Below the pieces are notes generated by a model. It was not told the origin of the DNA, ran no database searches, and saw only the letters and a program-made list of their open reading frames with translations. From IMG/VR virus record IMGVR_UViG_2534682078_000030: a DNA stretch of 30,947 nucleotides. The stretch is one strand, 5' to 3'. The translations under genes were made by a program, and so were the position numbers. The stretch is from a virus (Duplodnaviria > Heunggongvirae > Uroviricota > Caudoviricetes). This document shows, piece by piece, positions 23 to 26,152 of this stretch (within the stretch, counting starts at the first letter, position 1; the number at the start of each line of letters is the position of its first letter).

Positions 23-1000
23 TGAACCGCCCCGGGTTTCCTGGAGAGTGTTTTATCTGTGAACTCAGGCTGCCAGATCATCGTTTCCGATGGAAGCATA
101 ATAAGCTTTTTCTGCTTCTGCCGGAGGAGTATGGCCCAGCCTTCCCAGCAATCGTCGATTGTTATACCAGTCCACCCACGTTAGTGTGGCCAGTTCCACT
201 TCTGCACGGTTTTTCCAGCTCTTACGGTGTATTACCTCCGCTTTGTAAAGACCATTGATGCTCTCAGCCATCGCGTTGTCATACGAGTCGCCTGTACTCC
301 CTGTTGATGCCAGTAATCCGGCTTCTTTTAGTCGCTCCGTATAGGCCAGTGACACATACTGAGAGCCTTTATCGCTGTGATGGATGGTGCCAGACGGACG
401 ACGGGCCCACAACGCCTGCTCCAGCGCATCCAGCACGAATGTCGTTTCCATAGACGATGAGACCCGCCACCCCACGATGTATCCGGCAAACACATCAATG
501 ATAAACGCCACATAGACGAAGCCCTGCCATGTGCTGACGTAAGTAAAATCAGCCACCCACAGCTGGTCAGGTCGTTCTGCCACGAACTGACGGTTTACGC
601 GGTCGCCTGCGGCAACGGCTTTCCGGCTGATGGTCGTACGGACCTTTTTACCCCGGAGAACACCGGCAAGTCCCATAACCGCCATGTTACTGCGGCGCAG
701 TTCACGATTTTCACGTTCCAGCTCTTTCAGACGCTGACGTTCAGCGCTGGTGAGCCCACCATCACCGCCCCCGGTATCCCGCTCATGCTGGCGAACCCAG
801 ACACGCAGAGTCTCCGGCGTACAGCCAATCTTTGGGGCAATGGAACAAATTGCCGCCCACTGTGAGTCATATTCATCCTGACTTTCCAGAACCATACGAA
901 TCGCCCGCTGACGGACTTCGGGGGAAAAACGAGTATTTTTAGTCATCCTGTTTACCTCTTTCTCAGGGAGTTTAGTCTCCAGGATTTCCGGGGCGGTTCA
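23..1000 (-). mobile_element. IS3-family insertion sequence (IS629/IS1203-like), copy A, 978 bp, internally deleted
   Basis: Termini match copy B: TGAACCGCCCCGGGTTTCC from 23 (right end, reverse orientation) and GGATTTCCGGGGCGGTTCA ending at 1000 (left end). It is 332 bp shorter than the 1310-bp copy B; the junction at 685/686 joins orfA codons ...RRSN to orfB codons MAVMG. Flanking triplets TGT (20-22) and TTC (1001-1003) are not a direct repeat. Confidence 0.85.
65..946 (-). CDS. IS3-family transposase, in-frame OrfA-OrfB fusion created by the internal deletion (293 aa)
   Basis: First 86 aa are identical to OrfA of copy B ([19 protein letters not shown]...RELRRSN) and the remaining 207 aa are identical to the C-terminal part of OrfB of copy B ([14 protein letters not shown]...NDDLAA). 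The programmed-frameshift window and OrfB N-terminus are missing. Confidence 0.8.
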
Positions 1001-2517: not shown

Positions 2518-3477
2518 ATGAAAATTTGTATCGACGACGGCTCCACCAACATCAAGCTGGCATGGACTGAGAACGGCGAACGCCGCAACGCCATCAGCCC
2601 GAACAGCTTCAAGTCGGAATGGTCTGCGCCGTTCGGTGGCACGCAGCCCGCGAACTACATGCTTGATGGCGTGCGCTATGGTTTTGATCCGGTCAGCGAT
2701 CGCTTTGTCCAGACGACCGACACGCAATACCAATACAGTGATGTGAATGTCATTGCCATTCATCACGCGCTGGTCAAATCAGGCATCACGCCACAGGAGG
2801 TGGATGTGGTTGTCACCCTGCCACTGAGCGAGTATTTCGACACAAACGCACAGCCGGACATAGCCAACATCAACCGCAAAAAAGCGAACGTTATGCGCCC
2901 GGTGGAGTACCAGAACGGCGAAGCATTCACTATCCGTAACGTGCGGGTTATGCCTGAATCCATTCCGGCTGGCTTTAAGGCACTGGCTGACATGAGTCCG
3001 TTTGAATCCCTGCTGATTGTGGATTTGGGCGGAACCACGCTGGATGTGGCAAAGGTTCAGGGGCAGCTGGCAGGTATCAGCCAGGTGTTTTGCGATCCAC
3101 ACGTAGGCGTTTCCCTGATGGCTGATGCCGTGCTGTCGGTGATGGCCACTAACGGTATGCGTACCAGTCACCACATCGCCAATACCATTATTGAGCACCG
3201 TCACGATGAAGCCTGGCTGCGCCAGCACATTCACAATGACGCGCATTACAACAGCCTGATGGCGGTTATTCGTGAAAAGGAGGAGACACTGAAACAACGA
3301 GTGATCCGCGCGCTGGCGGGTTTTTCCGGTTACGGGCGGGTGATGGTTGTCGGTGGAGGGGCGGAGATTGTGGCACCCGCTATCCGCGAAGCCTGCGGAG
3401 TTAATGCGACTTTCATCACGGACGGGGTGCCACATTTTGCTCTGGTTAATGGGCTGTACGCAATGAACAAGGAGTAA
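2518..3477 (+). CDS. parM: ParM/StbA-like actin-type plasmid segregation ATPase
   Basis: 319 aa; N-terminus ICIDDGSTNIKLAW...ISPNSFKSEW, then YSDVNVIAIHHAL, VMPESIPAG, LIVDLGGTTLD and VVGGGAEI align closely with my recollection of plasmid R1 ParM. SD AAGGAAAA precedes the ATG at 2518. Confidence 0.85.
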   Translation: MKICIDDGSTNIKLAWTENGERRNAISPNSFKSEWSAPFGGTQPANYMLDGVRYGFDPVSDRFVQTTDTQYQYSDVNVIAIHHALVKSGITPQEVDVVVTLPLSEYFDTNAQPDIANINRKKANVMRPVEYQNGEAFTIRNVRVMPESIPAGFKALADMSPFESLLIVDLGGTTLDVAKVQGQLAGISQVFCDPHVGVSLMADAVLSVMATNGMRTSHHIANTIIEHRHDEAWLRQHIHNDAHYNSLMAVIREKEETLKQRVIRALAGFSGYGRVMVVGGGAEIVAPAIREACGVNATFITDGVPHFALVNGLYAMNKE

Positions 3478-3481
3478 ACCA

Positions 3482-3793
3482 ATGACGACACCAACCAGAA
3501 GAATAAGTTTCTATCTGAAGCCAGCTGCCGTCAAGAACGAAGGAGAAGCATGCGCCTGGCTGGACAGCCTTACACCAGAAGCCCGCAAAAGCGGCCAACG
3601 CGTGGCTTTTCTGGCCGGGCTGGCACTTCTGAAGACGAATCCGGCAGAGGCTTACCGACTGGCCGCATGGGCTGATGATGAGATGTTACCTGTGACACAA
3701 ATCAGCTCAAAAAAGTTTGAAGCACAGTCTGCACCAGTGGCTAAGATAACCAGCCAGATGGCTGGGAATATCCGGGCGTTATTTCCTGAGTAA
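3482..3793 (+). CDS. parR: ParR/StbB-like centromere-binding adaptor
   Basis: 103 aa immediately after parM; RRISFYLKP...LDSLTPEARKSGQRVAFLAGLAL resembles the R1 ParR N-terminal ribbon-helix-helix region (RRTIAFKLNP...LDSIPQGERSRLNRAALTAGLAL). Confidence 0.7.
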   Translation: MTTPTRRISFYLKPAAVKNEGEACAWLDSLTPEARKSGQRVAFLAGLALLKTNPAEAYRLAAWADDEMLPVTQISSKKFEAQSAPVAKITSQMAGNIRALFPE

Positions 3794-3921: not shown

Positions 3922-3949
3922 TTGACAGTAATGTGCCTTTTTGTAAGAT
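3922..3949 (+). promoter_or_regulatory. Candidate sigma70 promoter TTGACA-16-TAAGAT
   Basis: Perfect -35 hexamer at 3922-3927, 16-bp spacer, -10 TAAGAT at 3944-3949, inside an AT-rich region with nested inverted repeats (TAATCGAT...ATCGATTA at 3861-3906). Sequence-only prediction. Confidence 0.4.
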
Positions 3950-4157: not shown

Positions 4158-4427
4158 GTGCGGGCTAAAACAGGTATTTGCAAGAACCCTCATCGTTATA
4201 ACCCAACATTTCTGTCTCTCCCTGAATATCAAGGACAAGAAGGTCGGCACAAATGCGCTGCCTGTGCTTTTGAGCTAGGCATAAAAGATGCGCTTGAAGG
4301 ACGCGCTATGGCTCAGAATGATTTAGTTTTAGCTAACATTCCGTTTAGCCAGGCTGGAACTGTAAGGCACAGAGATGCTTATGAAGCATATGTTCGTGGT
4401 TGGCGATTAATACACAGCAACAATTGA
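4158..4427 (+). CDS. Hypothetical 89-aa protein (GTG start), Cys-containing (HKCAACAFELG)
   Basis: ORF with SD GAGG 8 nt upstream of GTG and a strong intrinsic terminator directly downstream. I do not recognise a family. Confidence 0.5.
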   Translation: MRAKTGICKNPHRYNPTFLSLPEYQGQEGRHKCAACAFELGIKDALEGRAMAQNDLVLANIPFSQAGTVRHRDAYEAYVRGWRLIHSNN

Positions 4428-4435
4428 TATTTTTG

Positions 4436-4460
4436 AAGCGCCGATAAGGCGCTTTTTTTT
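4436..4460 (+). terminator. Rho-independent terminator AAGCGCC-gataa-GGCGCTT followed by T8
   Basis: GC-rich 7-bp stem and a run of 8 T, 9 bp after the stop codon at 4425-4427. Confidence 0.75.
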
Positions 4461-4989
4461 GTTTGCACGATAGTGCACAAGTTTGCACAATTTTTTTGAA
4501 CGACTTTTTGTACTTCCGGCCCGCGTGGCGGCTGGATCCGTCAAGGATCCGTACGTGCACAAAAAACGCGTTTTTTCTACGCGCAGGTGACGGGGGAACA
4601 GCCCGCGTTTCAGGGGGGTAAACAGCATTCCCTGAACGATGTCGCAGAGACACAACAGAATGGCCATATTTCTCACGCTGAGCATGAAAAAGGCGTGAGG
4701 GCTTTTGATTTGATGGGGTGAAAGGTAAGGCCGTCAAAATCGCACTGAGGCAGCGAGAACATACAGTCAACGCGGTGGGATTGCGTAAGAGTCTGACCGT
4801 CGATGGTGGCGATAAACTGGAAGGCGTCGTGAAATTATCTGATTGATACAGGAGCTGGAGAGCCGGGGCATAAATTTTTTATGCCCCGGCGAAGCAGCAG
4901 ACAAGCGAAGCGCGTCAGTGATGCGGCACCTTGCCGACCACACTTCATAAGTGCAAAATACGAGCAAAGAAATCAATGGAGGCTGTTTT

Positions 4990-5514
4990 ATGGTCATTAA
5001 TTACAAGCAGTTACGAGAAAAACGAGAGCAGGTAAAGGAAAGTTTTCGCCGCAATGAAGATCTGACCCCGCTTGTACACCTTGCTCAGGGAATTGTAGAT
5101 GCTTATGAAATCTCTCTGGAGCTGCCATCACAGACATGGACTGATAGCGACGGTAATCGCCAGCATTACGTTTCATGCGGACTGGAAACAACTGAAGGGT
5201 TTCGCAGAATGCCTTTATCTCAGATTCCTGCCTCTACCCCCAAAGCAAGGGGCGGCAATGATGAGCGAAAACTGATTTTCAGCATTGAGACAGTGGTTGA
5301 CGACACACCTGGCGAAGTCGCCTTCGTGCATACTCCTCTTTCGATCGCAATGTATAACGATGAAATACAGGTTCGCGTTAATAATAATATCGTGCCACTT
5401 AAAGAAGGTAATTCACCCTACACCACCGTTTGTGAAGCCATTCAATATTACGTTCTCTCTGAAATTGATAATCTCAAGCCTGACGGCACCCAGAAAATGG
5501 TTCAACTCTGGTAA
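4990..5514 (+). CDS. Hypothetical protein, about 174 aa, unknown function
   Basis: ATG at 4990 with GGAGG 7 nt upstream (the tracked ORF opens at 4951, but the start at 4990 has the SD). Terminated by a hairpin plus T run. No recognisable motif. Confidence 0.5.
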   Translation: MVINYKQLREKREQVKESFRRNEDLTPLVHLAQGIVDAYEISLELPSQTWTDSDGNRQHYVSCGLETTEGFRRMPLSQIPASTPKARGGNDERKLIFSIETVVDDTPGEVAFVHTPLSIAMYNDEIQVRVNNNIVPLKEGNSPYTTVCEAIQYYVLSEIDNLKPDGTQKMVQLW

Positions 5515-5519
5515 AAAGG

Positions 5520-5545
5520 ACAGCCCCATCACGGGGCTGTTTTTT
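5520..5545. terminator. Bidirectional intrinsic terminator ACAGCCCC-atcac-GGGGCTGT flanked by A5 and T6
   Basis: 8-bp GC-rich stem with a U tract on either strand; lies between the convergent 174-aa ORF and Q. The Q stop codon (5529-5531) is in the loop. Confidence 0.7.
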
Positions 5546-6575
5546 CATCAAGAAGAGCATAAGAATTAAAACGGATCACCTCTTCGCCAAGCCAGTCATT
5601 GATGTGCTTCATGGCCTCCATAACGGGCATCAGCTCGTTAATTGCATAAACCCGCGCGGCCTTCTCCACATCACCAAACGCACTTTTTTCGCCCGGCATC
5701 GCCCCCATCAGTTGCGGCGGAACACGGTGCGCAGCCAGCACATCATCACGGGATGCCGCCTTAACATTCATGAACTCATCTTTTGCGGTGATCTGCTGGA
5801 ACGGCAAAATTTGCACCCCCTCTTTGCCCCCGTTGGGCGCATGAATGAGCACGTTTTTAAATGCACCACTACCACGTGCACCCTGTAATGTTTCTTTCAG
5901 GGAGTCCATGCTTTCGCGGTTTACCTGCGCTGCACCGATGTAGATGATGCACCCGGCGTGGGATCCGTTGTCGTAATACAGTTTTCTGAACATGTCCGCC
6001 GAATGAGACAGGCTGGCCGAGAGTAATGCGCCGAGATATTCCGGCATGCCGTAGATTTCCTGGTTAATATCCGGATTCATCAGGTGGCACACTTTGCCAG
6101 GGCGAAACTGAAACGCGTCCTTGCCATCCTGCACATACCACCATGATTCAAGATCGCTTCCGCGTCGCATGTATTTCGCCAGTGCGTGCCGTAATTTAAG
6201 CGGTTCGCCGAGCATATTGCTTCGAAGCTCAAGGTATGCGTTACCGAACACAAACCAGTCCAGCGCCAGCGCCGAGAAATCCTGCCGGGAAAGCAGCGGG
6301 TGCGGAATATAGCAGCCGAGCAATACATTGCGCTTAAAGTAAAGCGCAGACTGATGCCAGGACGTTTGCCGGGCGGCTCTTGCCAGACCGTACCAGTCCA
6401 CCGGGGTTTCATACCACCGCCCGTTATCAGCACAGTACATATTGTCCAGCAAATCATGCCCGGTCAGGCGATAAGGACCATCAAAAGTGAATGCACTGAG
6501 CGACGATTCTTTCCTGAGCGCATCAGCGAGATCAATGCGTGAACTCATGCGCACTTTTTTATTTTTTCTGCTCAT
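5529..6575 (-). CDS. Q: Portal protein (P2 gpQ family)
   Basis: 348 aa, immediately downstream of and overlapping the terminase large subunit on the same strand, as in P2; length and position fit gpQ. Confidence 0.8.
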   Translation of the reverse strand: MSRKNKKVRMSSRIDLADALRKESSLSAFTFDGPYRLTGHDLLDNMYCADNGRWYETPVDWYGLARAARQTSWHQSALYFKRNVLLGCYIPHPLLSRQDFSALALDWFVFGNAYLELRSNMLGEPLKLRHALAKYMRRGSDLESWWYVQDGKDAFQFRPGKVCHLMNPDINQEIYGMPEYLGALLSASLSHSADMFRKLYYDNGSHAGCIIYIGAAQVNRESMDSLKETLQGARGSGAFKNVLIHAPNGGKEGVQILPFQQITAKDEFMNVKAASRDDVLAAHRVPPQLMGAMPGEKSAFGDVEKAARVYAINELMPVMEAMKHINDWLGEEVIRFNSYALLDEKTAP

Positions 6576-8326
6576 CAGAACTCCATAACCGTGAAACGCT
6601 CGTTTTCTCCTTCGCCGCCAATTGGTTCGTTAATGACAGCAAGCATGGTTGCCCACGCAAGGTCGCCGTGGCTGATCCCCCTCGCGCGGTCCGTTTCGTA
6701 AGTGATAAAACCGCCCGGTGTTTTCACCTTACGCACGGCGTTAAAGGCCGCGACCAGCTCGCGTTCGGCGCGATCGTATTCCCACCGCCCGGCACGCATT
6801 ATTTGCAGCATTTTCAGTACCAGCGACCGTTTTGATGACAGCGTGAAGGTGTACGGAATAGCAGCAGGGAAAAACCGTTTCACTATCTGATAAACAGCCT
6901 CCCCGTTCCCGCCCGTCACATCAATGCCGATGTGTTCCACGTTGTAGCGACACGTGAACTCTTCAATGACTCTGGCCTGTTCTTCAAACTCCAGCCCCTG
7001 AACGCGTCGCGTCTCCACCGTTCGAAAACGGCCACCAGGAACAGCCGGAGGAACCACCACAGACACAGCGCCGCTGTCGCCGTTGCCACTGCTGCCGTTT
7101 GCGTCATACCCAATCCATACCGGACGATTCCCCATCGGGCGGGGAGCAAAAGGTTTCCAGTCTTTCCAGTCGTCGTATCCGTCAACACCGCAGCCAATCA
7201 GGATATTCAGGTTAAATGCCGATTCCCCTTCGCGGACAAACTCACACATATAGAGATTGAGGAACTCGTCTTCGGTGTTTTCATCACGAATTTCGTCGAT
7301 ATCGGTGTGTTTCCAGCCGTGATTAACCACATCTTCCAGCGTGACAATTTGCCGCCACGTCCGGTCAGGGCAGATAAGCCCGTTATGCAGCGTATTCCAG
7401 TCCACAGAAAAACGCCGGCGTTTATGCGTGGCCTTTTTCTCGTTCCAGCGGTCGCCGTTCCAGTAGGCGTATGCTTCGTGCGTTTCGGTGGATGGCGTGG
7501 AGAAGTAGGTGCGCCGCAGTCCGCTGAGGGTTGCCATAGCGCCAGCCACCTTGCGCAGTTCAGCAAAGCGACTGACCCAGAAAAATTCATCAAAATAAAA
7601 ATTGCCCGTATAGGACTGCGCCGACGCAGCAGAAGTGCCGAGAAAATGCAGCTCTGCGCCATTGGAGAGGATGATTTTATCGCCCCCTTTCAGCTCCACA
7701 TCAACTTCAGCCGCAGCCTTCTGAATAATGCTTTTAAACTGGAACGCCTGACGACGCGACGCAGACAAAAAAATCTGGTTACGCTGGTAAGGTTGCGCCA
7801 CATCGTCACGCAGCGCCATCAGCAGAGCTTCCTGTGCAAAATACCAGGTCGCCCCAATCTGTCGGGATTTCAGGATCATCCTGTTACGTATCCCGGCTTC
7901 CCTGCAAAGGGTCAGGGAGTCAAACCAGCCCCGCTGATGCCACTCCAGCCTGCTGATGATTTTTTCCCGCAGTGCGGAAATCTGTTCCGGCGTGAAATGA
8001 TTTTTGAGTTTTTTCGCCCGGCCTTTCTTTCCTGCGGCCATCACATCCGGATGGCCATCATGCAGCTTTTTAAGCTGCCGGGTCAGCAGGTCTATTTCCT
8101 TAAAGTCACCGCCTGTTTTATTCTGTTTTTCAGTAAGCTGGATGAGGCGCGCATCGATGGACTGCGTGACACGCTGCACGGGTGGCGTTTCATCCCACTG
8201 GTCGCGTTTTTTCCACGCATAAATCGTGTTCGGGTTTATTCCCATCAGACGTGATATTTCTGCGGGCGGATAACCCTGCCAGTAAAGTTGCCGCGCACGC
8301 TGGCGCACAAAAGCGTCCTGAATCAT
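6575..8326 (-). CDS. P: Terminase large subunit (P2 gpP family)
   Basis: 583 aa; divergent from the O-N-M-L operon across a 120-bp intergenic region, as in P2. Confidence 0.85.
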   Translation of the reverse strand: MIQDAFVRQRARQLYWQGYPPAEISRLMGINPNTIYAWKKRDQWDETPPVQRVTQSIDARLIQLTEKQNKTGGDFKEIDLLTRQLKKLHDGHPDVMAAGKKGRAKKLKNHFTPEQISALREKIISRLEWHQRGWFDSLTLCREAGIRNRMILKSRQIGATWYFAQEALLMALRDDVAQPYQRNQIFLSASRRQAFQFKSIIQKAAAEVDVELKGGDKIILSNGAELHFLGTSAASAQSYTGNFYFDEFFWVSRFAELRKVAGAMATLSGLRRTYFSTPSTETHEAYAYWNGDRWNEKKATHKRRRFSVDWNTLHNGLICPDRTWRQIVTLEDVVNHGWKHTDIDEIRDENTEDEFLNLYMCEFVREGESAFNLNILIGCGVDGYDDWKDWKPFAPRPMGNRPVWIGYDANGSSGNGDSGAVSVVVPPAVPGGRFRTVETRRVQGLEFEEQARVIEEFTCRYNVEHIGIDVTGGNGEAVYQIVKRFFPAAIPYTFTLSSKRSLVLKMLQIMRAGRWEYDRAERELVAAFNAVRKVKTPGGFITYETDRARGISHGDLAWATMLAVINEPIGGEGENERFTVMEF

Positions 8327-9340: not shown

Positions 9341-10393
9341 ATGAATCTGGTGATGTCAGATATTACCCGCAACAAGCTGGGTTGCTATATGGCGCAGCAG
9401 GCGTCGCTTAATAATATCCCGGTTTCTGCGCTGGTATCGCGATTTACCGTAGAACCCTCGGTGCAGCAGCGTTTTGAAAACGCCTCAAAGGAAAGCACCG
9501 AATTTACAAAAAGAATTAACGTGATCGGCGTGACCGACCAGAAAGGCGAAAAAATCCTCCTGGATACCACAGGACCGATTGCGCGCACGAATACCAGTTA
9601 TGACGGCACAAAACGCCGTAACCCGAATAACGTGGTTGATCTGAAAAACCGCAAATACCAGTGCGAACAGGTGAACTACGACACGTTTATTTCATATCCG
9701 CAGCTTGATGCCTGGGCGGCACATCCTGATTTTCAGTCCCGCATCAGCGCACAGATTGCCCGACAGGTGGCGCTTGACCGCATCATGATCGGTTTCAACG
9801 GCACGTCTCACGCGGATGAGTCCAACTTCAGCACCAACAAGCTGCTTCAGGACGTTAACGTGGGCTGGCTGGAGCACATCAGAACCGACGCCAGCGAACG
9901 CGTTATGAATGACGTGACGCTGACCTCCCGCAACATGGACAACACCGTGGCGCACGCGGGTAAGTATGCGAACGCTGATGCACTGGTACAGGACGCACGC
10001 TCATCCCTGCTGGATGAATGGCACAAGGAAGCTGACGACCTCGTGGTGATTATGGGGCGCAACCTGTTTAACTCGCTGCGTCTGCCCGTGCTGAACAGCA
10101 TCAGCGGCCAGAATCCCAATGCGGAATTACTTGCCGGGCAGCTCATCCTGTCATCGCGCACCATTGGCGGGCTGGGCGTGTTCCTTGCGCCGTTCTTCCC
10201 GGATGCAACGATGCTTATCACCTCGTTCAACAACCTGTCGATTTACTGGCAGAAAGGTTCAATGCGTCGCCTGATGAAAGACGAACCGGAATACAACCGC
10301 ATCGCCACCTACCAGTCCATCAATGACGCTTATGTCGTTGAAGACTATGGCAAGTGCGCGATGGTCACTGGCCTGAAGTTCGCCGACAGCTAA
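9341..10393 (+). CDS. N: Major capsid protein (P2 gpN family)
   Basis: 350 aa; motifs FTVEPSV, MLQDVNVGWL, YFPDAMLIT, DYVVEDY align with P2 gpN. SD AAGGAG precedes the ATG. Confidence 0.9.
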   Translation: MNLVMSDITRNKLGCYMAQQASLNNIPVSALVSRFTVEPSVQQRFENASKESTEFTKRINVIGVTDQKGEKILLDTTGPIARTNTSYDGTKRRNPNNVVDLKNRKYQCEQVNYDTFISYPQLDAWAAHPDFQSRISAQIARQVALDRIMIGFNGTSHADESNFSTNKLLQDVNVGWLEHIRTDASERVMNDVTLTSRNMDNTVAHAGKYANADALVQDARSSLLDEWHKEADDLVVIMGRNLFNSLRLPVLNSISGQNPNAELLAGQLILSSRTIGGLGVFLAPFFPDATMLITSFNNLSIYWQKGSMRRLMKDEPEYNRIATYQSINDAYVVEDYGKCAMVTGLKFADS

Positions 10394-10438
10394 TCAACTC
10401 ACGGCGGGCATCATGCCCGCCTGTAACGGAGAGAAAAA

Positions 10439-11239
10439 ATGATTACTCCTGCACAGCAACACTGGCAGAACGTGATGGCACAGCGCGCAGGCCGGGCGAA
10501 TGAAGGCGTGGACCACGCCGCGCGTACCGCGCATGAAGAGGTGCTGTATCGTCTGCGTCTGGCACAGGCCCGCCTTAAGGGCGTACAGGCCAGAAGCGCG
10601 AAAGCCGCCATCAAAAAAGAGTTATTGCCGGACTTTTCCGGCTGGATTGAGGGAACGCTGGAGGCTGACGGCGGGCAGCAGGATGAAGTGATTGCCACGC
10701 TGATGGTGTGGGCGATTGACTGCGGCGATCTTCCGCTGGCGCTGCGTATTGGTGCGTATGTGGTCCGTCATAACCTCATTATGCCGGATAACTTTGGCCG
10801 TACTGCTGCCACGGTACTGACCGAAGAAATCTGCAACCCGGTACTGACGCAGGCCGGGACGGATGCCGACGCGGATTTATCCGCCTTTATCGAACCACTG
10901 GATACCCTCCGGGAGATTGTCACCGACCAGGACATGCCGGACGAAGTGCGCGCCAAATTATGCAAGGCGTGCGCCTTTGCCCGTCGTGGTCTGACCGATG
11001 CAGACAACATGGCCTTATCACTGAAGCTGCTGCGCGAAGCGATGCACCTGAACCCGAACGCAGGTGTGAAACGCGAGATTGCAACCCTTTCCCGCGCCCT
11101 GAAAAAAGCCGATTCCGCAGCCGAACCAGAAGACGCCAGCGCACAGCAGGCGCAGGACGAAAGCAGCAAAAGTAAAAAGACAACGCGGAAGCCTGCAACA
11201 CGAAAAACCACCGCGACGCAGAAGGCGAAGCGCGGTTAA
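10439..11239 (+). CDS. M: Terminase small subunit (P2 gpM family)
   Basis: 266 aa; DMPDEVRAKL and NAGVKREI motifs and a basic Lys/Arg-rich C-terminus as in gpM. Confidence 0.85.
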   Translation: MITPAQQHWQNVMAQRAGRANEGVDHAARTAHEEVLYRLRLAQARLKGVQARSAKAAIKKELLPDFSGWIEGTLEADGGQQDEVIATLMVWAIDCGDLPLALRIGAYVVRHNLIMPDNFGRTAATVLTEEICNPVLTQAGTDADADLSAFIEPLDTLREIVTDQDMPDEVRAKLCKACAFARRGLTDADNMALSLKLLREAMHLNPNAGVKREIATLSRALKKADSAAEPEDASAQQAQDESSKSKKTTRKPATRKTTATQKAKRG

Positions 11240-11255
11240 CGACTGACCCCGTCAG

Positions 11256-11327
11256 CGGGCGGCGTGCGCGGTGTTCCGGTTTGACTCCGTGACCGTTTAC
11301 ACCGCGCACCCACCGCCCGATTTTTTT
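11256..11327 (+). terminator. Long imperfect hairpin followed by T7 between M and L; candidate intrinsic terminator/attenuator
   Basis: CGGGCGGCGTGCGCGGTG (11256-11273) pairs with CACCGCGCACCCACCGCCCG (11300-11319); T run at 11321-11327. Confidence 0.45.
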
Positions 11328-11341
11328 CAGGAGTGAACCCC

Positions 11342-11836
11342 ATGAGTATGGTTGCCAGAACTGAACCCAGACCCGCAGAGGACGACATCACCGATACCGA
11401 TGATGGCGATACCCGCATTTCAGCGGGTGCATTCTGGCCGGATATTGTGCTGCGCGAGCTGCGTCTGGCGGTACGACTGCCGGGCCGCGTGACCACCTCC
11501 CGCCTGCTGCATACTGCCACCGGGGCTGTGGCACACGTTACCCGCGAGCTGGAAGCATGGCAGCAGGAACAGCAGGCAGCTGGCCATCAGACGCTGGCCG
11601 ATGTTCCGGCCCCTGTAATTAACGGAGAAAGCGTCAATCTCTGGCACTGGCGCAATGCGGTTTATACCGCCACGCGCGCCCTGATTCTGGAGCGTTATCG
11701 TGATGCAGACACAACGGACAAGGGCGACCGCCGGGCGGACGCTCTGGATATACAGACATCGGATTTGTGGCGTGATGTGAGCTGGGCCATCTCTGACATT
11801 CTGTGCCGCCCGCGAATCTTTGCGGAGTTGTGCTGA
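11342..11836 (+). CDS. L: Head completion/stabilisation protein (P2 gpL family)
   Basis: Position after M; ATG at 11342 with SD CAGGAG (the tracked ORF begins at a GTG at 11333). Confidence 0.75.
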   Translation: MSMVARTEPRPAEDDITDTDDGDTRISAGAFWPDIVLRELRLAVRLPGRVTTSRLLHTATGAVAHVTRELEAWQQEQQAAGHQTLADVPAPVINGESVNLWHWRNAVYTATRALILERYRDADTTDKGDRRADALDIQTSDLWRDVSWAISDILCRPRIFAELC

Positions 11837-12036
11837 TGAAAGTGAAGGCACTGGAAGGCGACACCGTGGATTCGCTCTGTTTCCGGTACTACGGCACGAC
11901 GCAGGGCGTCACCGAAAAGGTGCTGGATGCCAACCCCGGACTCTGTCAGCAGGTATTTCTGGACGCCGGGCAGGAAGTTGAGATGCCGGAGCCGGAGAAG
12001 AAGAAACGAGAAATGATTCAGTTGTGGGGGGAGTAG
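11836..12036 (+). CDS. X: Tail protein X (P2 gpX family)
   Basis: 66 aa, MKVKALEGDTVDSLCFRYYG...; the ATG overlaps the L stop (TGATG). Confidence 0.75.
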   Translation: MKVKALEGDTVDSLCFRYYGTTQGVTEKVLDANPGLCQQVFLDAGQEVEMPEPEKKKREMIQLWGE

Positions 12037-12038
12037 CA

Positions 12039-12362
12039 GTGAGCACCATTCAAACAGGGATCACAGAGCAGGTTATTGCGTGGCTCTTTGACCACCTGCC
12101 AACGGTGTATGCAGTAGGCGCGGCGGTCAGCATTTCCGCGCTGATGAGTCTTTATGACGGACGAACACTGGTTCAGACCGTAACGGGATCGCTGGCGTGC
12201 GGCGTTCTTGCCATGGCCGTGGCCGGGTCGTTGCGCTTCTTCGGGTTTCCTGAAGATGCCGTGACGTTTATCGGCGCATCAATCGGTTTTATGGGTGCAG
12301 AGAAAGCACGCGACAAGGTTATTGCGGCCTTTAATCGCAGGGTGAAGGAGAAGGACGAATGA
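12039..12362 (+). CDS. Holin (P2 gpY-like)
   Basis: About 107 aa with three hydrophobic segments and a charged C-terminus; GTG at 12039 preceded by GGGGGAG. Start uncertain (the tracked ORF begins at 12024). Confidence 0.65.
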   Translation: MSTIQTGITEQVIAWLFDHLPTVYAVGAAVSISALMSLYDGRTLVQTVTGSLACGVLAMAVAGSLRFFGFPEDAVTFIGASIGFMGAEKARDKVIAAFNRRVKEKDE

Positions 12363-12751
12363 GCAACACATTTAAATTCAGCAGCCGGAGCGAAAAGAAT
12401 TTGCAGGGCGTAAATCCTGATCTGGTGAAAGTGACCCGACGGGCACTGGAAATCTCGGAAGTGGATTTTGGTATCACCGAAGGGTTGCGCAGCCGTTACC
12501 GCCAGAAGCAACTGGTGGCCACGGGTAAGAGCCAGACCATGAACAGCCGCCACCTTACGGGGCATGCCGTGGATGTTGTGGCTTATATCGGCAGCCAGGT
12601 GTCATGGGAATGGCCGCTGTACGAAAAAATCGCAGCAGCATTCAGACAGGCCAGCCGGGAACTGAATATTCCGGTGGAATGGGGCGGCGACTGGAAGACC
12701 CTGAAAGACGGACCGCATTTTCAGTTACCACACGGAGCCTATCCGGCATGA
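12359..12751 (+). CDS. Endolysin, peptidase M15-like (not a P2 K-type lysozyme)
   Basis: 130 aa with SRHLTGHAVD, the SxHxxGxAxD zinc-binding signature of VanY/M15 peptidases. Confidence 0.7.
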   Translation: MSNTFKFSSRSEKNLQGVNPDLVKVTRRALEISEVDFGITEGLRSRYRQKQLVATGKSQTMNSRHLTGHAVDVVAYIGSQVSWEWPLYEKIAAAFRQASRELNIPVEWGGDWKTLKDGPHFQLPHGAYPA

Positions 12752-13155
12752 AGCTCTGGCCCACGCTTGGCGTCGCTTTCCTTCTGATTGCCGGATGGGG
12801 AACATCCATGCGTCTGTCTTGGTCGCTGGGCCGGGAGAACGCCAGAAACGAAGCACAGGCCAGCACCCTGAAAAGTACCGCCGACACCCTGAATATCATC
12901 AGCGCCGGGGGACAGGATATGCAGCAGGTGCTGGCGCAACTCCGCGTGGAAAATCAGCAACGCAATCAGGACGGAGAGGTAAGACGTGAACAGCTACGCA
13001 ACGATATTGCAAAAGATGAATGCGCCCACGCTTTGCCTGACGCTCGTTTTACTGACAGGCTGCGCAGGCACGCAGAACGCGCCACTGCCAGCGCCGTCAG
13101 TCCGGCTTATACCGCAGACGCTGACCATACCGGTAACGCCTCCCCGCTTCCCTGA
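12748..13155 (+). CDS. i-spanin (Rz/LysB-like)
   Basis: ATG overlaps the endolysin stop; N-terminal membrane anchor MKLWPTLGVAFLLIAGWG followed by a coiled-coil-like charged region. Confidence 0.6.
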   Translation: MKLWPTLGVAFLLIAGWGTSMRLSWSLGRENARNEAQASTLKSTADTLNIISAGGQDMQQVLAQLRVENQQRNQDGEVRREQLRNDIAKDECAHALPDARFTDRLRRHAERATASAVSPAYTADADHTGNASPLP

Positions 13156-13306
13156 TACTCCCACATGGGGAAATCTCGGTATATGGGGCGACCGCCTTCT
13201 GGATGCACTGGAAACCTGTAACGCGGATAAACGGGCCATTGAATTACTGGAACAGCGCAGGCTGCAACGACTGAACAACGAGGATAACAACCATGCTGAA
13301 AACTGA
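12986..13306 (+). CDS. o-spanin lipoprotein (Rz1/LysC-like), overlapping the i-spanin in the +1 frame
   Basis: Lipobox LLTGC after a short hydrophobic signal and a Pro-rich mature region; starts inside the i-spanin gene and extends beyond it. Alternative start at 13016. Confidence 0.6.
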   Translation: MNSYATILQKMNAPTLCLTLVLLTGCAGTQNAPLPAPSVRLIPQTLTIPVTPPRFPDTPTWGNLGIWGDRLLDALETCNADKRAIELLEQRRLQRLNNEDNNHAEN

Positions 13307-13760
13307 TTCCCTGCGTGAAGCCATGACCCGTTCATGCCGATGGTGTCAGGCCAACCCGGAAAAATTCACCATTTTCGTGGAGAGCGGCAACATTGAAACG
13401 ACCGGAGAAACCCCATCGTTTGTTTACCGCTATCAGATGGTGATGTTTGTCATGGATTACGCCGGGGAGCTGGACGACCTCACGCTGCCGCTGCTGGCGT
13501 GGTTATCCGAAAATCAGCCACAGTTGTTGCTCAACCCTGAGCGTAATCAGGACATCAAATTCTCCGCCGTTATCAATGACGATGACAGCGCCGATCTCCT
13601 GTTTACGCTCCCCCTGCGGGAACGCGTTCGCATCACGCGCAGCAGTCAGGGGACACCGCAGGCAGAACACCTGCCGGAGCCAAAACCCCGCCTGCCATCT
13701 CCCGAAGGCGACTGGTCGCATGTATTCCAGGATGTGACGTGGGGTGAAAGCGATGGATAA
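13293..13760 (+). CDS. R: Tail completion protein (P2 gpR family)
   Basis: 155 aa, MLKTDSLREAMT...LLAWLSENQP resembles gpR. Confidence 0.8.
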   Translation: MLKTDSLREAMTRSCRWCQANPEKFTIFVESGNIETTGETPSFVYRYQMVMFVMDYAGELDDLTLPLLAWLSENQPQLLLNPERNQDIKFSAVINDDDSADLLFTLPLRERVRITRSSQGTPQAEHLPEPKPRLPSPEGDWSHVFQDVTWGESDG

Positions 13761-14388
13761 GGCATTCACCCGCGTGGATGAAACCTTTGAGGCCATCCGC
13801 GACAGCCTGAATCAGCAGGCCATCAATAACATCGCCAGAAAGCTGGCACAGGATTTACGCCGCGCCCAGCAGGCGCGTATCCGGTCACAGAAAGCGCCGG
13901 ACGGGACCGCGTGGACACCACGCAGACGCCGCGTAACCCGGATACAGGAACGCATTCGCTTTATCTGGAATAACGAAGCACGCACGCTGAAAAACTGGCA
14001 TCACGACACGGGGAAATACGGGCGAACCATTACCGGGTGGGATGAGGATAAAAACAATATCCGCACGTTTTACCGGGATGACATCGACCGTTTTCTGGAA
14101 ATACGCACCCGGCGCATCAACCAGGACAGCACAAAGCGCGTCCCCATGTTCGTAAAACTGCGCACCGCCCGCTACCTGAAAGCCCGTGCAGATGCTTCCG
14201 GTGTGACGGTGGGTTACAGCGGCGTGGCCGCACGTATTGCCCGCGTTCATCAGTTCGGTGAGCGCGATCAGGTTGCGCCGGGCATTTTCACCGATTACCC
14301 GGTACGTGAGCTGTGGGGTATCAGCCAGGCAGATGAGCGCCTGATTTATAACACGGTGCTGGGCCGGATTGCGGAGGCTGTACGGTGA
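13753..14388 (+). CDS. S: Tail completion / virion morphogenesis protein (P2 gpS family)
   Basis: Position between R and V; ATG at 13753 with SD GGGGTGA. Longer than P2 gpS. Confidence 0.65.
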   Translation: MDKAFTRVDETFEAIRDSLNQQAINNIARKLAQDLRRAQQARIRSQKAPDGTAWTPRRRRVTRIQERIRFIWNNEARTLKNWHHDTGKYGRTITGWDEDKNNIRTFYRDDIDRFLEIRTRRINQDSTKRVPMFVKLRTARYLKARADASGVTVGYSGVAARIARVHQFGERDQVAPGIFTDYPVRELWGISQADERLIYNTVLGRIAEAVR

Positions 14389-14966
14389 GCGCTGAACTCA
14401 TGCGACTGCTGAGCAACATCATCCGTACCGGGATCATCTCTGAAGTTGATGAGGAATCCTGGTGCGTGCGCGTTCGCAGCGGCGAACTGGAAACAGGCTG
14501 GCTGCGCTGGAACACCACGCGCGCGGGTGCCTTCAATGTGTGGTTGCCGCCATCACCCGGCGAACAGGTGGTAATTGCCTGCATCGGCGGCAACCCGGAA
14601 ACCGCCATGATAATTGGCAGTCTGTGGAGTGATGCCATTCCGGCACCCGGCAAAAGCCTGAAAGAAATCGTGGTCAGCGCGCCGGATGGCGCGGTGTTCC
14701 GCTACGACGCGGACGCAGGCGCACTGAGCGCCAGCGGCATGAAAACGGCCACCCTGCAGGCATCCGTCAGTGTGACGCTGGACACACCTGTCGTGGAATG
14801 CACAGACCTTCTGAGAACAGCGACGCTTGACGTCACAAAAGGAGGAAAGATGAGCGGCAATATCACGCACAGCGGCGGCAACTTCACCTCAAACGGCATT
14901 ACCGTGCATACGCATAAACACGGTGGCGTGAAAGGCGGCAGCGATTCGACAGGAGGCCCGCAGTGA
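14385..14966 (+). CDS. V: Baseplate spike protein (P2 gpV family)
   Basis: IRTGIISEVD...GEQVVIAC...HTHKHGGVKGGSDSTGGP matches the gpV pattern including the C-terminal HTHKH motif. Confidence 0.85.
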   Translation: MSAELMRLLSNIIRTGIISEVDEESWCVRVRSGELETGWLRWNTTRAGAFNVWLPPSPGEQVVIACIGGNPETAMIIGSLWSDAIPAPGKSLKEIVVSAPDGAVFRYDADAGALSASGMKTATLQASVSVTLDTPVVECTDLLRTATLDVTKGGKMSGNITHSGGNFTSNGITVHTHKHGGVKGGSDSTGGPQ

Positions 14967-15313
14967 CAACCCGCTACACAGGAATGAATCCGGACGGGAC
15001 GGGAAACCTGAACGATATGGAGCACCTGAAACAGTCAGTCAGGGATATCCTGACCACCCCGCTGGCAAGCCGGGTTATGCGACGGGAATATGGCAGCCTT
15101 GTGCCTGATTTGATTGACGAACCCATGAATAACACCACGCGTCTGCAATGCATGAGTGCTGCCGTGATTGCGCTGACACGATGGGAACCCCGCATTGCCC
15201 TGGATGCCATCGACGTTGTCTGGAAAGCGGGAGGCCGCGCCGGGGTGACGCTGTCGGGCACTGTCATGCAGACCATGCAGAATGTTGAGTTAACCATCAC
15301 GCTGAGGGAGTAA
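14963..15313 (+). CDS. W: Baseplate wedge protein (P2 gpW family)
   Basis: 116 aa, overlaps the V stop; position and size fit gpW. Confidence 0.85.
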   Translation: MTTRYTGMNPDGTGNLNDMEHLKQSVRDILTTPLASRVMRREYGSLVPDLIDEPMNNTTRLQCMSAAVIALTRWEPRIALDAIDVVWKAGGRAGVTLSGTVMQTMQNVELTITLRE

Positions 15314-15316
15314 ATC

Positions 15317-16213
15317 ATGCCCGCCGTTGACCTTTCCCAGTTACCGGAACCCGCCATCATCGCGGAGCCTGACTTTGAGGCAATTCTGGCTGACACAAAG
15401 GCCATGATGATTGCGGCTTATCCCGCCGAACAGCGTGAAGCCGTCTCCGCCGCGCTGGAGCTGGAATCGGAACCCCTGAACGTTATCGCCCAGACAACAG
15501 CGTTTCGTGAAATGCTGTTACGCCAGCGGGTCAATGAGGGGGCACGCGCCTGCATGTTAAGCCACAGCGCCGGGACAGACCTGGACAACCTCGCGGGCAA
15601 TATGAACACAAAGCGCCTGACCATCACTCCGGCAACGGATACCACCGACGCAGTGATGGAAAGTGACACCTCGCTGAGACTGCGGGCGCAGCGGGCGTAC
15701 GATGGCCTGAGTGTTGCTGGCCCGTCAGGTGCATACGAGTATTTTGCCCGCAGCGCCAGCGGTCTGGTGCGTGATGCGCGGGCTATCAGTCCGTCTCCGG
15801 CAAATGTGACGGTTTCCATCCTGTCCACTGAAGGCGACGGCACAGCAACGGAGGCGTTGCTTAATACCGTTCGCGCCGTTCTGAATGCAGAGGATACCCG
15901 CCCGGTGGCCGACCGCCTTACTGTACAGAGCGCCAGAATCGTGACATGGCGGCTGAATGCAAAACTGTACTTTTACCCCGGCCCGGAATCCGAACCTATT
16001 CTGGCGGCGGCTGAATCGTCGTTCAGGAAGTGGCTGGCTGAGCAGGGGCTTATCGGTCAGGACGTGGCGTTGTCCGCCATTGCTGCCGCACTGCATGTGC
16101 ACGGTGTGCAACGCGTGGAGATAATCGAACCCACACAGAATATGGCCATCAGCGACATACAGGCGGCGCGCTGTGAGTCGTTCACCATCAGCGAAGGTGG
16201 GCGCAATGAGTAA
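15317..16213 (+). CDS. J: Baseplate assembly protein (P2 gpJ family)
   Basis: 298 aa between W and I. Confidence 0.85.
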   Translation: MPAVDLSQLPEPAIIAEPDFEAILADTKAMMIAAYPAEQREAVSAALELESEPLNVIAQTTAFREMLLRQRVNEGARACMLSHSAGTDLDNLAGNMNTKRLTITPATDTTDAVMESDTSLRLRAQRAYDGLSVAGPSGAYEYFARSASGLVRDARAISPSPANVTVSILSTEGDGTATEALLNTVRAVLNAEDTRPVADRLTVQSARIVTWRLNAKLYFYPGPESEPILAAAESSFRKWLAEQGLIGQDVALSAIAAALHVHGVQRVEIIEPTQNMAISDIQAARCESFTISEGGRNE

Positions 16214-16738: not shown

Positions 16739-18871
16739 ATGAGTACCACAACACGAAAATTTAAAACCGTTATCACCGATACAGGTGCCAAAAAATTAGC
16801 TCAGGCAGCCGCGCCAGATGGTAAGCCTGTCCGCCTGACTCATATGGCCGTGGGCGACGGTGGCGGCGCGTTGCCCACACCAGACAGTAAGCAGACCCGT
16901 CTGGTGCATGAGGTGTGGCGACACACTGTTAATCGCGTCATCCTGGACGCAACACATCAGAACCGCATTATTGCGGAGCTGGTTATTCCTCCAGAAACGG
17001 GCGGATTCTGGATCCGGGAAATTGGTGTGTTTGATGAGCACGGCGATTTAATCGCGGTGGGCAATACTGCCGAAAGTTACAAGCCAGCCGTTGCCGAAGG
17101 GTCCGGACGTGCACAAACATTTCGCACCATTCTGACCGTATCCAGCACTGCCACTGTGGCGCTTACCGTGGATAACACCATGGTGATGGCCACAGTGGAT
17201 TACGTGGATAACAAACTGAAAGAGCATGAACAGTCACGACGTCACCCGGATGCCTCGCTGACCGCAAAAGGCTTTGTTCAACTCAGTAGCGCCACTAACA
17301 GCGATTCTGAAACGCTGGCTGCAACGCCGAAAGCGGTTAAGGTCGCGTATGATCTTGCTAACGGAAAATATACAGCGCAGGATGCCACAACAGCGCGAAA
17401 AGGCCTTGTCCAGCTTAGTAGTGCAACCAACAGTACATCTGAAACGCTGGCGGCAACTTCAAATGCAGTAAAAGCTGCCTATGACAATGCTGAAAAACGT
17501 CTGCAGAAAGCTAAGAATGGTGAGGATATCTCTGATAAAGACACCTTTACGAAAAATATCGGTGCCTGCCGTGCATATAGTGCAGAGCTGAATATTGGTG
17601 GAGATAGTGAAGCATGGACAACTGCGCAGTTGATTTTTTGGCTAGAGAGTCAGGGGGCATTTAACCATCCTTACTGGATGTGCAAAGGCTCATGGGCTTA
17701 TGCAAATAATAAGGTCATTACAGATACAGGTTGCGGAAGTATTTGTCTTGCAGGTGCTGTTGTGGAAGTTATTGGCACCCGCGGCGCAATGACCATACGC
17801 ATTACCACACCGAGTACATCCAGCGGTGAAGGCATCCCTAATGCTCAATTTACTTATATTAATCATGGTGATGCTTATGCTCCTGGCTGGCGAAGGGACT
17901 ATAACTCCAGGAATAAGCCAACAGCATCAGAGATCGGGGCGTTACCGTCAGATGGGACAGCAGTATCGTCAGTTAATCTGGCTTCAAAAGGTCGGCTGAC
18001 CGCCCTGACAGATAATATGCAGGGGGCCACAGGTCTGGAGTTATACGAGGCGTATAACAACGGATATCCAACAACGTATGGAAATATCATTCACCTGAAA
18101 GGGATGACAGCCGTTGGCGAAGGCGAATTACTCATCGGCTGGAGTGGTATAAGCGGTGCTCATGCTCCGGCATTTATTCGTTCACGACGGGATACGACCG
18201 ACGCAAACTGGTCGCCGTGGGCGCAGCTTTACACCTCGGCTCATCCTCCTGAAGAGTTTTATCCAGTCGGTGCACCGATTCCGTGGCCATCAGATACCGT
18301 TCCGTCTGGTTATGCCCTGATACAGGGGCAGACTTTTGACAAATCTGCATACCCGAAACTTGCAGTCGCTTATCCGTCAGGCGTTATTCCTGATATGCGT
18401 GGCTGGACTATCAAGGGCAAACCTGCCAGTGGTCGTGCCGTATTGTCTCAGGAACAGGACGGCATTAAATCGCACACCCACAGCGCCAGCGCATCCAGTA
18501 CTGATTTGGGGACGAAAACCACATCGTCGTTTGATTACGGTACTAAAACGACCAGTTCATTTGATTACGGCACAAAAACCACAAATAGCGCAGGAGCTCA
18601 TTCACACAATATACCTGTTGGTCACACTGGCGCGGGGAATGGTGTATCAGCCGGTTATAACGCTGCGTTAGGTACAGGTACCACGTCGAGCGCAGGAGGG
18701 CATGCTCACAATGTATATATCGGTGCCCATAACCACACTATCGGCATTGGTGCTCATGCCCATTCTGTCATTATTGGTCCCCACGGACACACCATCACCG
18801 TTAATGCTACGGGGAACGCAGAAAACACCGTAAAAAACATCGCATTTAACTATATTGTGAGGCTTGCATAA
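16739..18871 (+). CDS. H: Tail fibre protein (P2 gpH family) with divergent His-rich C-terminal receptor-binding region
   Basis: N-terminal 250 aa align with P2 gpH ([15 protein letters not shown]...[10 protein letters not shown]...[17 protein letters not shown]...). C-terminus has tandem [10 protein letters not shown] repeats and HxH motifs. Confidence 0.9.
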
Positions 18872-19447
18872 TGACATTCAGAATGAGTGAACAATCACGG
18901 ACCATAAAAATTTATAATCTACTGACCGGAACCAATGAGTTTATTGGTGAAGGTGATGCATACATTCCACCTCATACAGGTCTGCCTGCAAACAGTACCG
19001 ATATTGCCCCGCCAGATATTCCGGCTGGCTTCGTGGCCGTTTTCAACAGTGATGAGGCATCGTGGAATCTCGTTGAAGACCATCGGGGAAAAACCGTCTA
19101 TGACGTGGCTTCCGGCGACGCGTTATTTATTTCTGAACTCGGTCCATTACCGGAAAATGTTACCTGGTTGTCGCCGTATGGAGAGTATCAGAAGTGGAAC
19201 GGCACATCCTGGGTGAAAGATGCAGAAGCAGAAAAACTGTTTCGGATAAGGGAGGCGGAAGAACAAAAACAGCCTGATGCAGGTAGCCAGCGAGCATATT
19301 GCGCCACTTCAGGATGCCGTAGATTTGGATATTGCAACGGAGGAAGAGGCATCGTTACTGGCTGCATGGAAGACATACCGGGTATTGTTGAATCGTGTTA
19401 ATACAGCGGTAGCAGCGGATGTTGAGTGGCCAGTCGCCCCACAATAA
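18871..19447 (+). pseudogene. G: Tail fibre assembly chaperone (gpG/Tfa family), frameshifted at an A5 run (19265-19269)
   Basis: Frame 1 ends at 19401 with an atypical Cys-rich tail. The -1 frame from the A run encodes the conserved Tfa C-terminus [58 protein letters not shown], ending at about 19447. Confidence 0.6.
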
Positions 19448-19490: not shown

Positions 19491-20063
19491 CTATTTATAC
19501 AATACAACACCGCTCTTTTTAGTTATATATGTGCAGTTCGATGGTATATCTTTATTTATAAAAGACATTGCACCTATTTTTACATTATCCCCAATTTTAC
19601 GTGATAATCCAATGATGCAACAATTAGCTCCGATATCAACGTTACTACCAATTTTTACTCTTGAACCAGGCATGTCACCATCTATCTGTCCAATGGTAGT
19701 ATTCTGTCGTAACACCAGATTTTCACCAGCATCAACAGCAAAATGAACAACAATTCCAGCATGATGGGGAATTGTTAACCCTTTTCCAATATTTGCGCCC
19801 AATCCAATTTCACAACCAAATTTGTTAATTATTTTACTGTTTAACTTTTTGGCTGCTTTCTTATGTAATTTATTACCATTAATATACATTTCGTTAGCCA
19901 ACCGCCACCAGAAAAGGAAATTCCGGTTACGCTGTTTTTTCTCTCTTAAAAGCCTCCAGATATCCATACGTTTCCGCCGAATTACTTCATATTTCCAGAA
20001 GTTTTTTAAATTAGTAGAGTCCCCAAATAAAACAAAGTGAATTGCCATTAAGTAAGACAGCAC
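19491..20063 (-). CDS. Hexapeptide-repeat (left-handed beta-helix) acetyltransferase, cargo gene at the Z/fun position
   Basis: Repeated [LIV]-G-x-x-x-x hexads (IGLGANIGKGLTI, VKIGSNVDIGANCCIIG, KIGDNVKIGAMSF); AT-rich. Likely GTG start at 20063 with SD AAGGAG (the tracked ORF starts at 20096). Confidence 0.7.
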   Translation of the reverse strand: MLSYLMAIHFVLFGDSTNLKNFWKYEVIRRKRMDIWRLLREKKQRNRNFLFWWRLANEMYINGNKLHKKAAKKLNSKIINKFGCEIGLGANIGKGLTIPHHAGIVVHFAVDAGENLVLRQNTTIGQIDGDMPGSRVKIGSNVDIGANCCIIGLSRKIGDNVKIGAMSFINKDIPSNCTYITKKSGVVLYK

Positions 20064-20114
20064 GATAATCTCCTTAATTATTATTTCAGACCACACATAT
20101 TATAAGGTTAAGAG

Positions 20115-26107: not shown

Positions 26108-26149
26108 GTTCACAGATAAAACACTCTCCAGGAAACCCGGGGCGGTTCA

Positions 26150-26152
26150 GAT
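26150..26152. repeat. Target-site duplication GAT, right copy
   Basis: Triplet immediately 3' of the IS terminus ...GGGCGGTTCA. Confidence 0.8.

Follow-up and report, generated by a model that had tools for sequence, protein, structure and literature searches.

A gene of family phrog_5091 in an accessory cassette beside portal gene Q of a P88-like Escherichia coli prophage: a candidate phage-conflict gene

What is a single, well-delimited gene doing at the 3' end of a portal gene that is transcribed towards it? The question is raised by a stretch of 30,947 nucleotides (nt) of virus record IMGVR_UViG_2534682078_000030 (the window, i.e. the whole stretch of DNA that was analysed), which is a P88-like (Xuanwuvirus, Peduoviridae, P2-related) prophage of E. 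coli and in which an open reading frame (ORF) for a protein of 174 amino acids (aa) converges on portal gene Q. Here we find that this ORF is a member of family phrog_5091 and the payload of a mobile cassette, and that it is reasonable to regard it as a candidate phage-conflict gene. It is an uncharacterised instance of prophage morons and hotspot cargo, already catalogued as hypothetical in large surveys.

A 660-bp cassette just past the stop codon of Q

The borders of the insertion emerge from an alignment of the window with the gene-free phages P88 and 520873 and with PhiR44_2, a carrier of the gene. Homology to P88 and 520873 breaks at 4918/4919 and returns at 5579 inside Q, and the 660 bp in between stand where these two phages have 46 bp. 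In P88 the stop codon of Q is the TCA of GCGCGTCAG; as this TCA survives at window positions 4915-4917, the left junction can be placed one base past the old end of Q. On the other side the cassette supplies new final codons for Q (NSYALLDEKTAP in the window vs NPYALLDTQPTS in P88), and within the last 16 codons one residue and the final five residues are changed. The G+C content is 44.8% in the cassette as compared to 52-54% in neighbouring genes and flanks, and at third codon positions it is 43% in the 174-aa gene vs 59-60% in its neighbours. Moreover, the gene is present in four phages and missing from P88, 520873 and 503458, which are otherwise collinear, with clean junctions. The ORF is thereby shown to be the payload of a horizontally acquired 660-bp cassette located just past the Q stop codon of a P88-like prophage.

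The cassette is well represented in E. coli. Window positions 4430-5600 are 100% identical to strains E2863 and O111:H8 TW05614, and the cassette occurs in 397 of 5426 complete E. coli genomes (7.3%), i.e. in 35% of the 1142 genomes that possess the conserved non-coding block to its left. This block is also found, 91-100% identical, in 39 P88-like IMG/VR loci; in 39/39 of these the order block-cassette-Q is fixed, whereas the gpA side has variable cargo or none. At the same junction, another E. coli prophage has an allele of 55% identity.

The reading frame itself can start at two positions. A GTG at 4951 opens the longest ORF (4951-5514, 187 aa) and the ATG at 4990 opens the 174-aa reading, both ending with the TAA at 5512-5514. 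As every homologue starts with the shared N-terminus MVINY and as a GGAG upstream of the start is invariant in five diverged homologues, ATG 4990 is taken as the real start. Comparison with the PhiR44_2 allele yields 22 synonymous and 7 non-synonymous changes, corresponding to a ratio of non-synonymous to synonymous substitution rates (dN/dS) of 0.08, and the exact 174-aa protein is encoded on at least 1000 contigs. Together with the full-length match to phrog_5091 described below, this sequence evidence indicates that the ORF is a genuine gene under strong purifying selection and not a chance ORF.

The gene ends in a strong intrinsic terminator. Its hairpin (5520-5540) consists of stems 5520-5527 and 5533-5540 and a 5-nt loop (5528-5532); the 8-bp stem is G+C-rich and extends into an A-run before and a T-run after it. 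The predicted folding energy is -22.2 kcal/mol (z -5.6) on the + strand and -19.4 kcal/mol (z -4.7) on the - strand, none of 200 shuffled sequences folds as well, and a consensus scan also calls the hairpin a terminator on the - strand. The stop codon of Q, TCA on the + strand, lies within the loop, and the terminator of the cassette now also ends the P-Q operon. Thus the original prediction, which had described an ORF with a GGAGG Shine-Dalgarno sequence and a hairpin plus U-tract, convergent with Q and sharing a bidirectional terminator whose loop holds the Q stop codon, is confirmed in all of these features. Rfam gave no match within the cassette or close to it.

Upstream of the ORF a σ70-like element agrees with the consensus at 8/12 positions by our own hexamer count. 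In every allele that carries it, the first hexamer keeps its TTG, the second hexamer (-10) is constant throughout and the spacing stays at 17 nt, and this conservation reaches Salmonella-type alleles of ~60% protein identity. The first hexamer is either TTGCCG or TTGTCT, and the spacer differs at many positions. Such conservation around a diverged spacer is footprint-type evidence for a probable promoter, short of proof of activity. The element is not present upstream of one P2-like allele (locus L016). By eye, no dyad of the P2 late-promoter type (TGT-N12-ACA) was seen upstream of the ORF.

Terminators accompany the gene in other contexts as well. In the P2-like loci L006, L017 and L016 (two from Salmonella or of Salmonella type, one from E. 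coli) the gene is followed by strong A/U-flanked hairpins that differ from one another, and a terminator-like hairpin follows it in 4/4 lambdoid or HK97-like loci scanned (L064, L008, L011, L009). The terminator scan showed none after the gene in a Trabulsiella prophage (L004).

In lambdoid phages, a moron in the sense of Hendrix and Juhala is a unit of promoter, gene and terminator inserted between phage genes. The cassette resembles lambdoid morons in its foreign composition, in carrying a single gene and in being present or absent between collinear genomes; like them, it has its own terminator in all contexts examined save the Trabulsiella prophage, and a promoter-like element in the P2-like contexts. 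We are thus highly confident that it is a moron, i.e. accessory cargo. The same view had been put forward in the original prediction for the region between A and Q, and it stands on the pattern of presence and absence among collinear P88-like phages, the low G+C content and the predicted autonomous transcription unit; the comparison across related prophages found the ORF conserved in relatives.

Where the cassette lies with respect to cos depends on the non-coding block. The linear record of P88_4B11 opens at the equivalent of window position 4508/4509, and together with the conservation of the block this places the presumed cos near 4509-4545. The block has no significant similarity to P2 cos; locating cos by homology to P2 was therefore dropped, and, the region being unlike P2 cos, the exact position is inferential. 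Given a cos at this place, the gene would be located between cos and Q. The presumed cos is flanked by GTGCAC/TGCAC repeats and a GGATCC-containing palindrome (GGATCCGTCAAGGATCC) at 4464-4600; P88-like phages have these motifs in common, and terminase may recognise them. Towards the cassette, a hairpin (4866-4895) is found in P88, 520873 and PhiR44_2 and lies ~20 nt beyond the Q stop codon where the cassette is absent; it might be a weak terminator, an RNA stabiliser or a cos element.

Table 1. Features of the cassette and of its surroundings in the window.
Feature	Position	Strand	Remarks
Accessory cassette (moron), 660 bp	4919-5578	+	promoter element, Shine-Dalgarno sequence, ORF, bidirectional terminator, replacement 3' end for Q
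Gene for 174-aa protein, family phrog_5091 (WP_000236489)	4990-5514	+	predicted soluble, acidic, α+β
Shine-Dalgarno sequence GGAGG	4978-4982	+	7 nt 5' of ATG 4990; read directly
σ70-like promoter (probable), TTGCCG / 17-nt spacer / CAAAAT	4931-4959	+	conserved across diverged alleles
Bidirectional intrinsic terminator, common to ORF and P-Q operon	5515-5546	both	Q stop codon (5529-5531) in loop
Relic of ancestral Q stop codon (TCA on + strand)	4915-4917	-	marks left junction
Portal gene Q, 348 aa	5529-6575	-	convergent with ORF
Conserved non-coding cos-proximal block of P88-like phages, ~460 bp	4464-4918		conservation
Hairpin with 13-bp stem, no U-tract on either strand	4866-4895		-27.1 kcal/mol, z -6.5
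Insertion sequence (IS) 3-family transposase	65-946	-	directly upstream of gpA remnant
Replication gene A remnant, C-terminal 426 aa	1132-2412	+	profile positions 434-837 of phrog_6857
ParM	2518-3477
ParR/StbB	3482-3793
89-aa ORF (phrog_3941, WP_001390707)	4158-4427	+	expect value (E) 6e-49; gpA side of cos, separate from cassette
Terminase gene P	6575-8326	-
Scaffold gene O	8448 onward

Family phrog_5091 and its genomic contexts

The protein had been called an orphan in the original prediction; this does not hold, as it belongs to phrog_5091 and has relatives in several phage types. Residues 1-168 align to positions 1-164 of the 164-position profile (E 6.8e-67, 225 bits), and a match to phrog_5091 is obtained for 48/48 aligned relatives, none of which matches Pfam. 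The family has no Pfam or NCBIfam model, no solved structure and no assigned function.

The apparent breadth of the family varied with the search. A word-indexed search returned close relatives only, from E. coli, Salmonella, Yersinia and Trabulsiella, and a scan of species-representative genomes detected the family only in Salmonella and Trabulsiella. An exhaustive profile search yielded ~89 cluster representatives from prophages of Enterobacterales, many of them full-length (~155-175 aa) at 21-33% identity. Searches for related loci that started from single distant members found nothing.

The arrangement in which the gene runs towards the end of Q recurs in P2-like prophages of a Salmonella-type and of another E. 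coli lineage, and in the Trabulsiella P2-like prophage the gene directly follows gpA and precedes HicB and Phd/Fic modules. Outside the P2-like group, a metagenomic contig and Serratia prophages have it ahead of the holin as the first gene after antiterminator Q; E. coli phage CharmingMan has it in the same interval, with an HNH gene in front. This interval between Q and holin is where Stx phages carry stx. The Edwardsiella member stands between lysis genes and terminase genes, and the Lelliottia member just upstream of HNH and small-terminase genes. At every locus examined the context is a prophage. Phrog_5091 is thus shown to hop, as a single gene, between the moron slots of P2-like, lambdoid and HK97-like enterobacterial prophages, and it fits the definition of a moron because a single gene with its own terminator moves between permissive slots of unrelated temperate phages. 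In one Lelliottia prophage (L010), an integrase, two AlpA genes and a D5-type primase stand in place of the block after the small-terminase gene (~10385-15784), as if a satellite had been inserted beside the family member and the small-terminase gene.

The closest parallel in P2 itself are tin and old. Like these, the 174-aa gene is dispensable accessory cargo that lies next to cos in the gpA-gpQ interval, and its predicted transcription is apart from the phage operons. Unlike these, which lie on the gpA side of cos, it is found on the other side, towards Q, where the terminator tQ is all that P2 has. The claim that nothing occupies this position in P2 accordingly stands for the interval between cos and Q, apart from tQ, and fails for the wider A-Q region, which holds orf91, tin and old. 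A relation to P2 Tin was ruled out: hhalign of the family profile against Tin gave a probability of 0.3% over 10 aligned columns.

What the protein may do

Location is the first guide to function. The cos-proximal gpA-gpQ locus of P2-like prophages is a hotspot for anti-phage systems (Rousset et al. 2022, PMC9122126), and according to a 2026 study it is the main defence hotspot of P2, 19% of P2-like elements carrying unknown genes only at the main defence loci and 15-32% of the unknown P2 proteins being predicted as antiviral (PMC13586616). The 174-aa gene, encoded between A and Q, is hotspot cargo by position. Table S5 of PMC9122126 lists its product, WP_000236489, and the commoner allele, WP_000236495 (at least 167 entries), both labelled 'hypothetical', and the protein sequence is absent from the table of evaluated systems in the same paper. 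The sequence and the accessions are likewise absent from the accessible portions of the supplements of Vassallo et al. 2022 (PMC9519451) and of the DefensePredictor paper (PMC13092281). Literature searches returned no paper on phrog_5091 or on the UniProt and WP accessions, and the gene appeared only in the locus table of PMC9122126. Because of this location, a role in phage-phage or phage-host conflict is the most likely one, and we lean slightly towards conflict of any kind, be it defence or counter-defence. For defence and superinfection exclusion, which the original prediction had named, the gene is thus a candidate.

The second guide is the protein. It is hydrophilic (grand average of hydropathy -0.51) with an isoelectric point (pI) of 5.0, and no signal peptide, membrane segment, DNA-binding or enzyme signature was detected in it. 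An AlphaFold2 model from a 48-sequence alignment (predicted local distance difference test 90.2, predicted template modelling score 0.80) comprises helices 5-22 and 26-42, an antiparallel sheet at ~49-135 and a helix at 145-159. Near-invariant positions are mainly core aromatic and aliphatic residues, plus S42, T101 and K/Q at 152; a TV.DD.P turn is moderately conserved, and no catalytic-looking constellation of residues was found in the family alignment. Foldseek against BFVD returned nothing, and no informative structural relative emerged. Likenesses to small α+β protein-binding domains, i.e. the FP domain of PI31/Fbxo7, the C-terminal domain of TnsE, actin-capping protein, Imm52, TriTu, AcrIIA11 and DarA, are non-significant as structural matches. 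Designed helical-repeat proteins, which a sequence search of the PDB with a shallow alignment had returned at E 2e-10, were a composition artefact and disappeared with a diverse alignment. As enzyme-like conserved residues are lacking and as the modelled fold resembles only adaptor, inhibitor and immunity domains that bind proteins, the product most likely is cytoplasmic and non-enzymatic and acts by stoichiometric binding to another protein.

Based on these findings we tentatively propose, by analogy, that the product is an exclusion factor made by the prophage, which would bind a component of a competing phage and put it out of action; this is a possibility that we would hold less firmly than a conflict role as such. 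The cassette was inserted just behind the stop codon of Q, on the side of the presumed cos that faces Q, and its σ70-like element probably drives the ORF both in the repressed prophage and during lytic growth, as suggested by a promoter of the housekeeping type and by the lack of a P2 late-promoter element by eye. Expression would then be independent of the phage operons. The product might bind a component of the competing phage stoichiometrically, and the disabling of this component would result in exclusion. Such a mode of action would resemble that of P2 Tin, albeit without homology to Tin. In a somewhat wider formulation, which is plausible but still less than probable, phrog_5091 may be a new single-protein player in conflicts, either an exclusion factor or an inhibitor of immune systems, that has a fold not represented among solved structures and spreads as a promoter-gene-terminator cassette.

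Several observations weigh against exclusion. The lambdoid relatives lie downstream of the late promoter/tR' region, which fits late lytic expression, and this would suit counter-defence or a virion-associated role at least as well. Many hotspot genes are non-defensive, and neither an anti-phage phenotype nor a binding partner of the protein is on record. The promoter element is below the 9/12 threshold of the strict scan and was not called there. Finally, the protein has no hit in Pfam or NCBIfam and no match in PADLOC-DB v2.0.0 at E up to 1.

The protein could instead neutralise immunity, binding an immune protein of the host or of a rival, e.g. a sensor that responds to portal, terminase or capsid proteins. 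Many inhibitors are, like this protein, small, acidic and non-enzymatic. The position of the lambdoid relatives between antiterminator Q and holin (mostly first after Q) or beside terminase genes implies that they would be made together with late proteins, and in P2-like phages the gene abuts the portal gene. Nevertheless, the P2-like copies lie outside the early and late operons, alone with a σ70-type promoter and no obvious late-promoter element, and operon boundaries and places near cos take up insertions of all kinds, so that the adjacency to packaging genes may mean nothing. The structural matches, non-significant as they are, lend no help, and no known anti-defence family was matched, with no search of a dedicated anti-defence library made. 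We consider counter-defence unlikely as the actual role.

To the same degree we doubt that the gene serves the lysogen outside phage conflict, as a lysogenic-conversion or host-physiology factor, e.g. a regulator or a modulator of stress or virulence acting on a host protein. The moron architecture and the wide distribution among E. coli, pathogens and commensals alike (7% of complete genomes), would be in line with this, and the same slots hold non-defensive morons such as TerB-like and TciB-like genes; at the P2 locus, partition genes and toxins, e.g. cytolethal distending toxin, have been found. The hotspot, however, is dominated by defence systems, the loci examined are solely prophage contexts, and the absence of the targeting, DNA-binding and enzyme signatures listed above speaks against such a factor.

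An accessory role in morphogenesis or packaging, together with portal, terminase or cos, or a factor directed against satellites such as P4-like hijackers or phage-inducible chromosomal islands appears very unlikely. The gene does lie directly between the presumed cos and the portal gene, it is near terminase genes in the Edwardsiella and Lelliottia prophages, and P2 and P4 share cos and both have cos-proximal hotspots (PMC9122126). Yet it is dispensable, since P88, 520873, 503458 and ~65% of the E. coli prophages with the cos region lack it, and most lambdoid relatives stand beside antiterminator Q and holin, several genes upstream of the terminase. Furthermore, none of the structural PHROG and Pfam families showed similarity to the protein, and the possibility raised by the original prediction, that the ORF might turn out to be a conserved structural or housekeeping protein, has not materialised.

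That the ORF is spurious or decaying and has no function, as the degradation of the prophage in the window by IS elements and a frameshift in one IMG/VR copy (L059) might suggest, is effectively refuted by the dN/dS value, by conservation over the full length down to 21% identity and across genera, by the confident fold prediction and by the conservation of Shine-Dalgarno sequence, promoter element and terminator alike.

The gene matters since few places are known to yield as many anti-phage systems as the cos-proximal hotspot of P2-like prophages. With a single gene, clear borders, ~0.66 kb and no recognisable domain, this common cassette is a cheap candidate for phage challenge. A phenotype, if found, would provide phrog_5091, which recurs in the moron slots of lambdoid late operons, with a function, and a new inhibitor-type fold could emerge; without a phenotype, the gene would be one more ordinary prophage moron.

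Neighbouring features of the prophage

The remnant of gene A is annotated as a pseudogene by the Prokaryotic Genome Annotation Pipeline (PGAP) in strain E2863. As the N-terminal half of gpA is lost, the prophage should be replication-defective, though the cassette is intact. On the gpA side of cos, the 89-aa ORF has a promoter-like site (3922-3949, TTGACA-16-TAAGAT) and a terminator (4435-4455) of its own; across IMG/VR loci its variation is not tied to that of the 174-aa gene, and PGAP leaves it unannotated in E2863.

In the prophage of E. coli Ecol_542 (L019) the gpA side carries, at 4424-5803, a leftward unit of a DUF4760 gene (165 aa) and a gene for a 280-aa hypothetical protein. Among the entries examined in the table of Rousset et al., this unit is the commonest gpA-side partner of the WP_000236495 allele, occurring >160 times, and the pair looks like a candidate two-gene system.

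Further features of the window lie in its tail module and beyond. The Rfam family 'IS009' matches 19214-19410 on the + strand (182 bits, E 6e-44), overlapping the 3' end of a tail-fibre assembly gene (18871-19401). Just after this gene, a 201-aa ORF (19491-20096, - strand) has a weak hexapeptide-repeat (acyltransferase-like) match; it lies at what we take to be the second cargo hotspot of P2, the Z/fun position. A second IS3-family element extends over ~24900-27118, with an ALIL frameshift pseudoknot at 25175-25291 and orfB at 25217-26107. Beside it, a tail-sheath ORF (26147-27118, - strand) looks truncated, and a gpD-like fragment (27144-28016) is located on the opposite strand, which suggests a rearrangement of the tail module. 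Beyond this fragment, a 500-aa protein with an N-terminal PIN_4 domain is encoded at 28610-30112 on the + strand and could be either conflict-related cargo or part of flanking host DNA.

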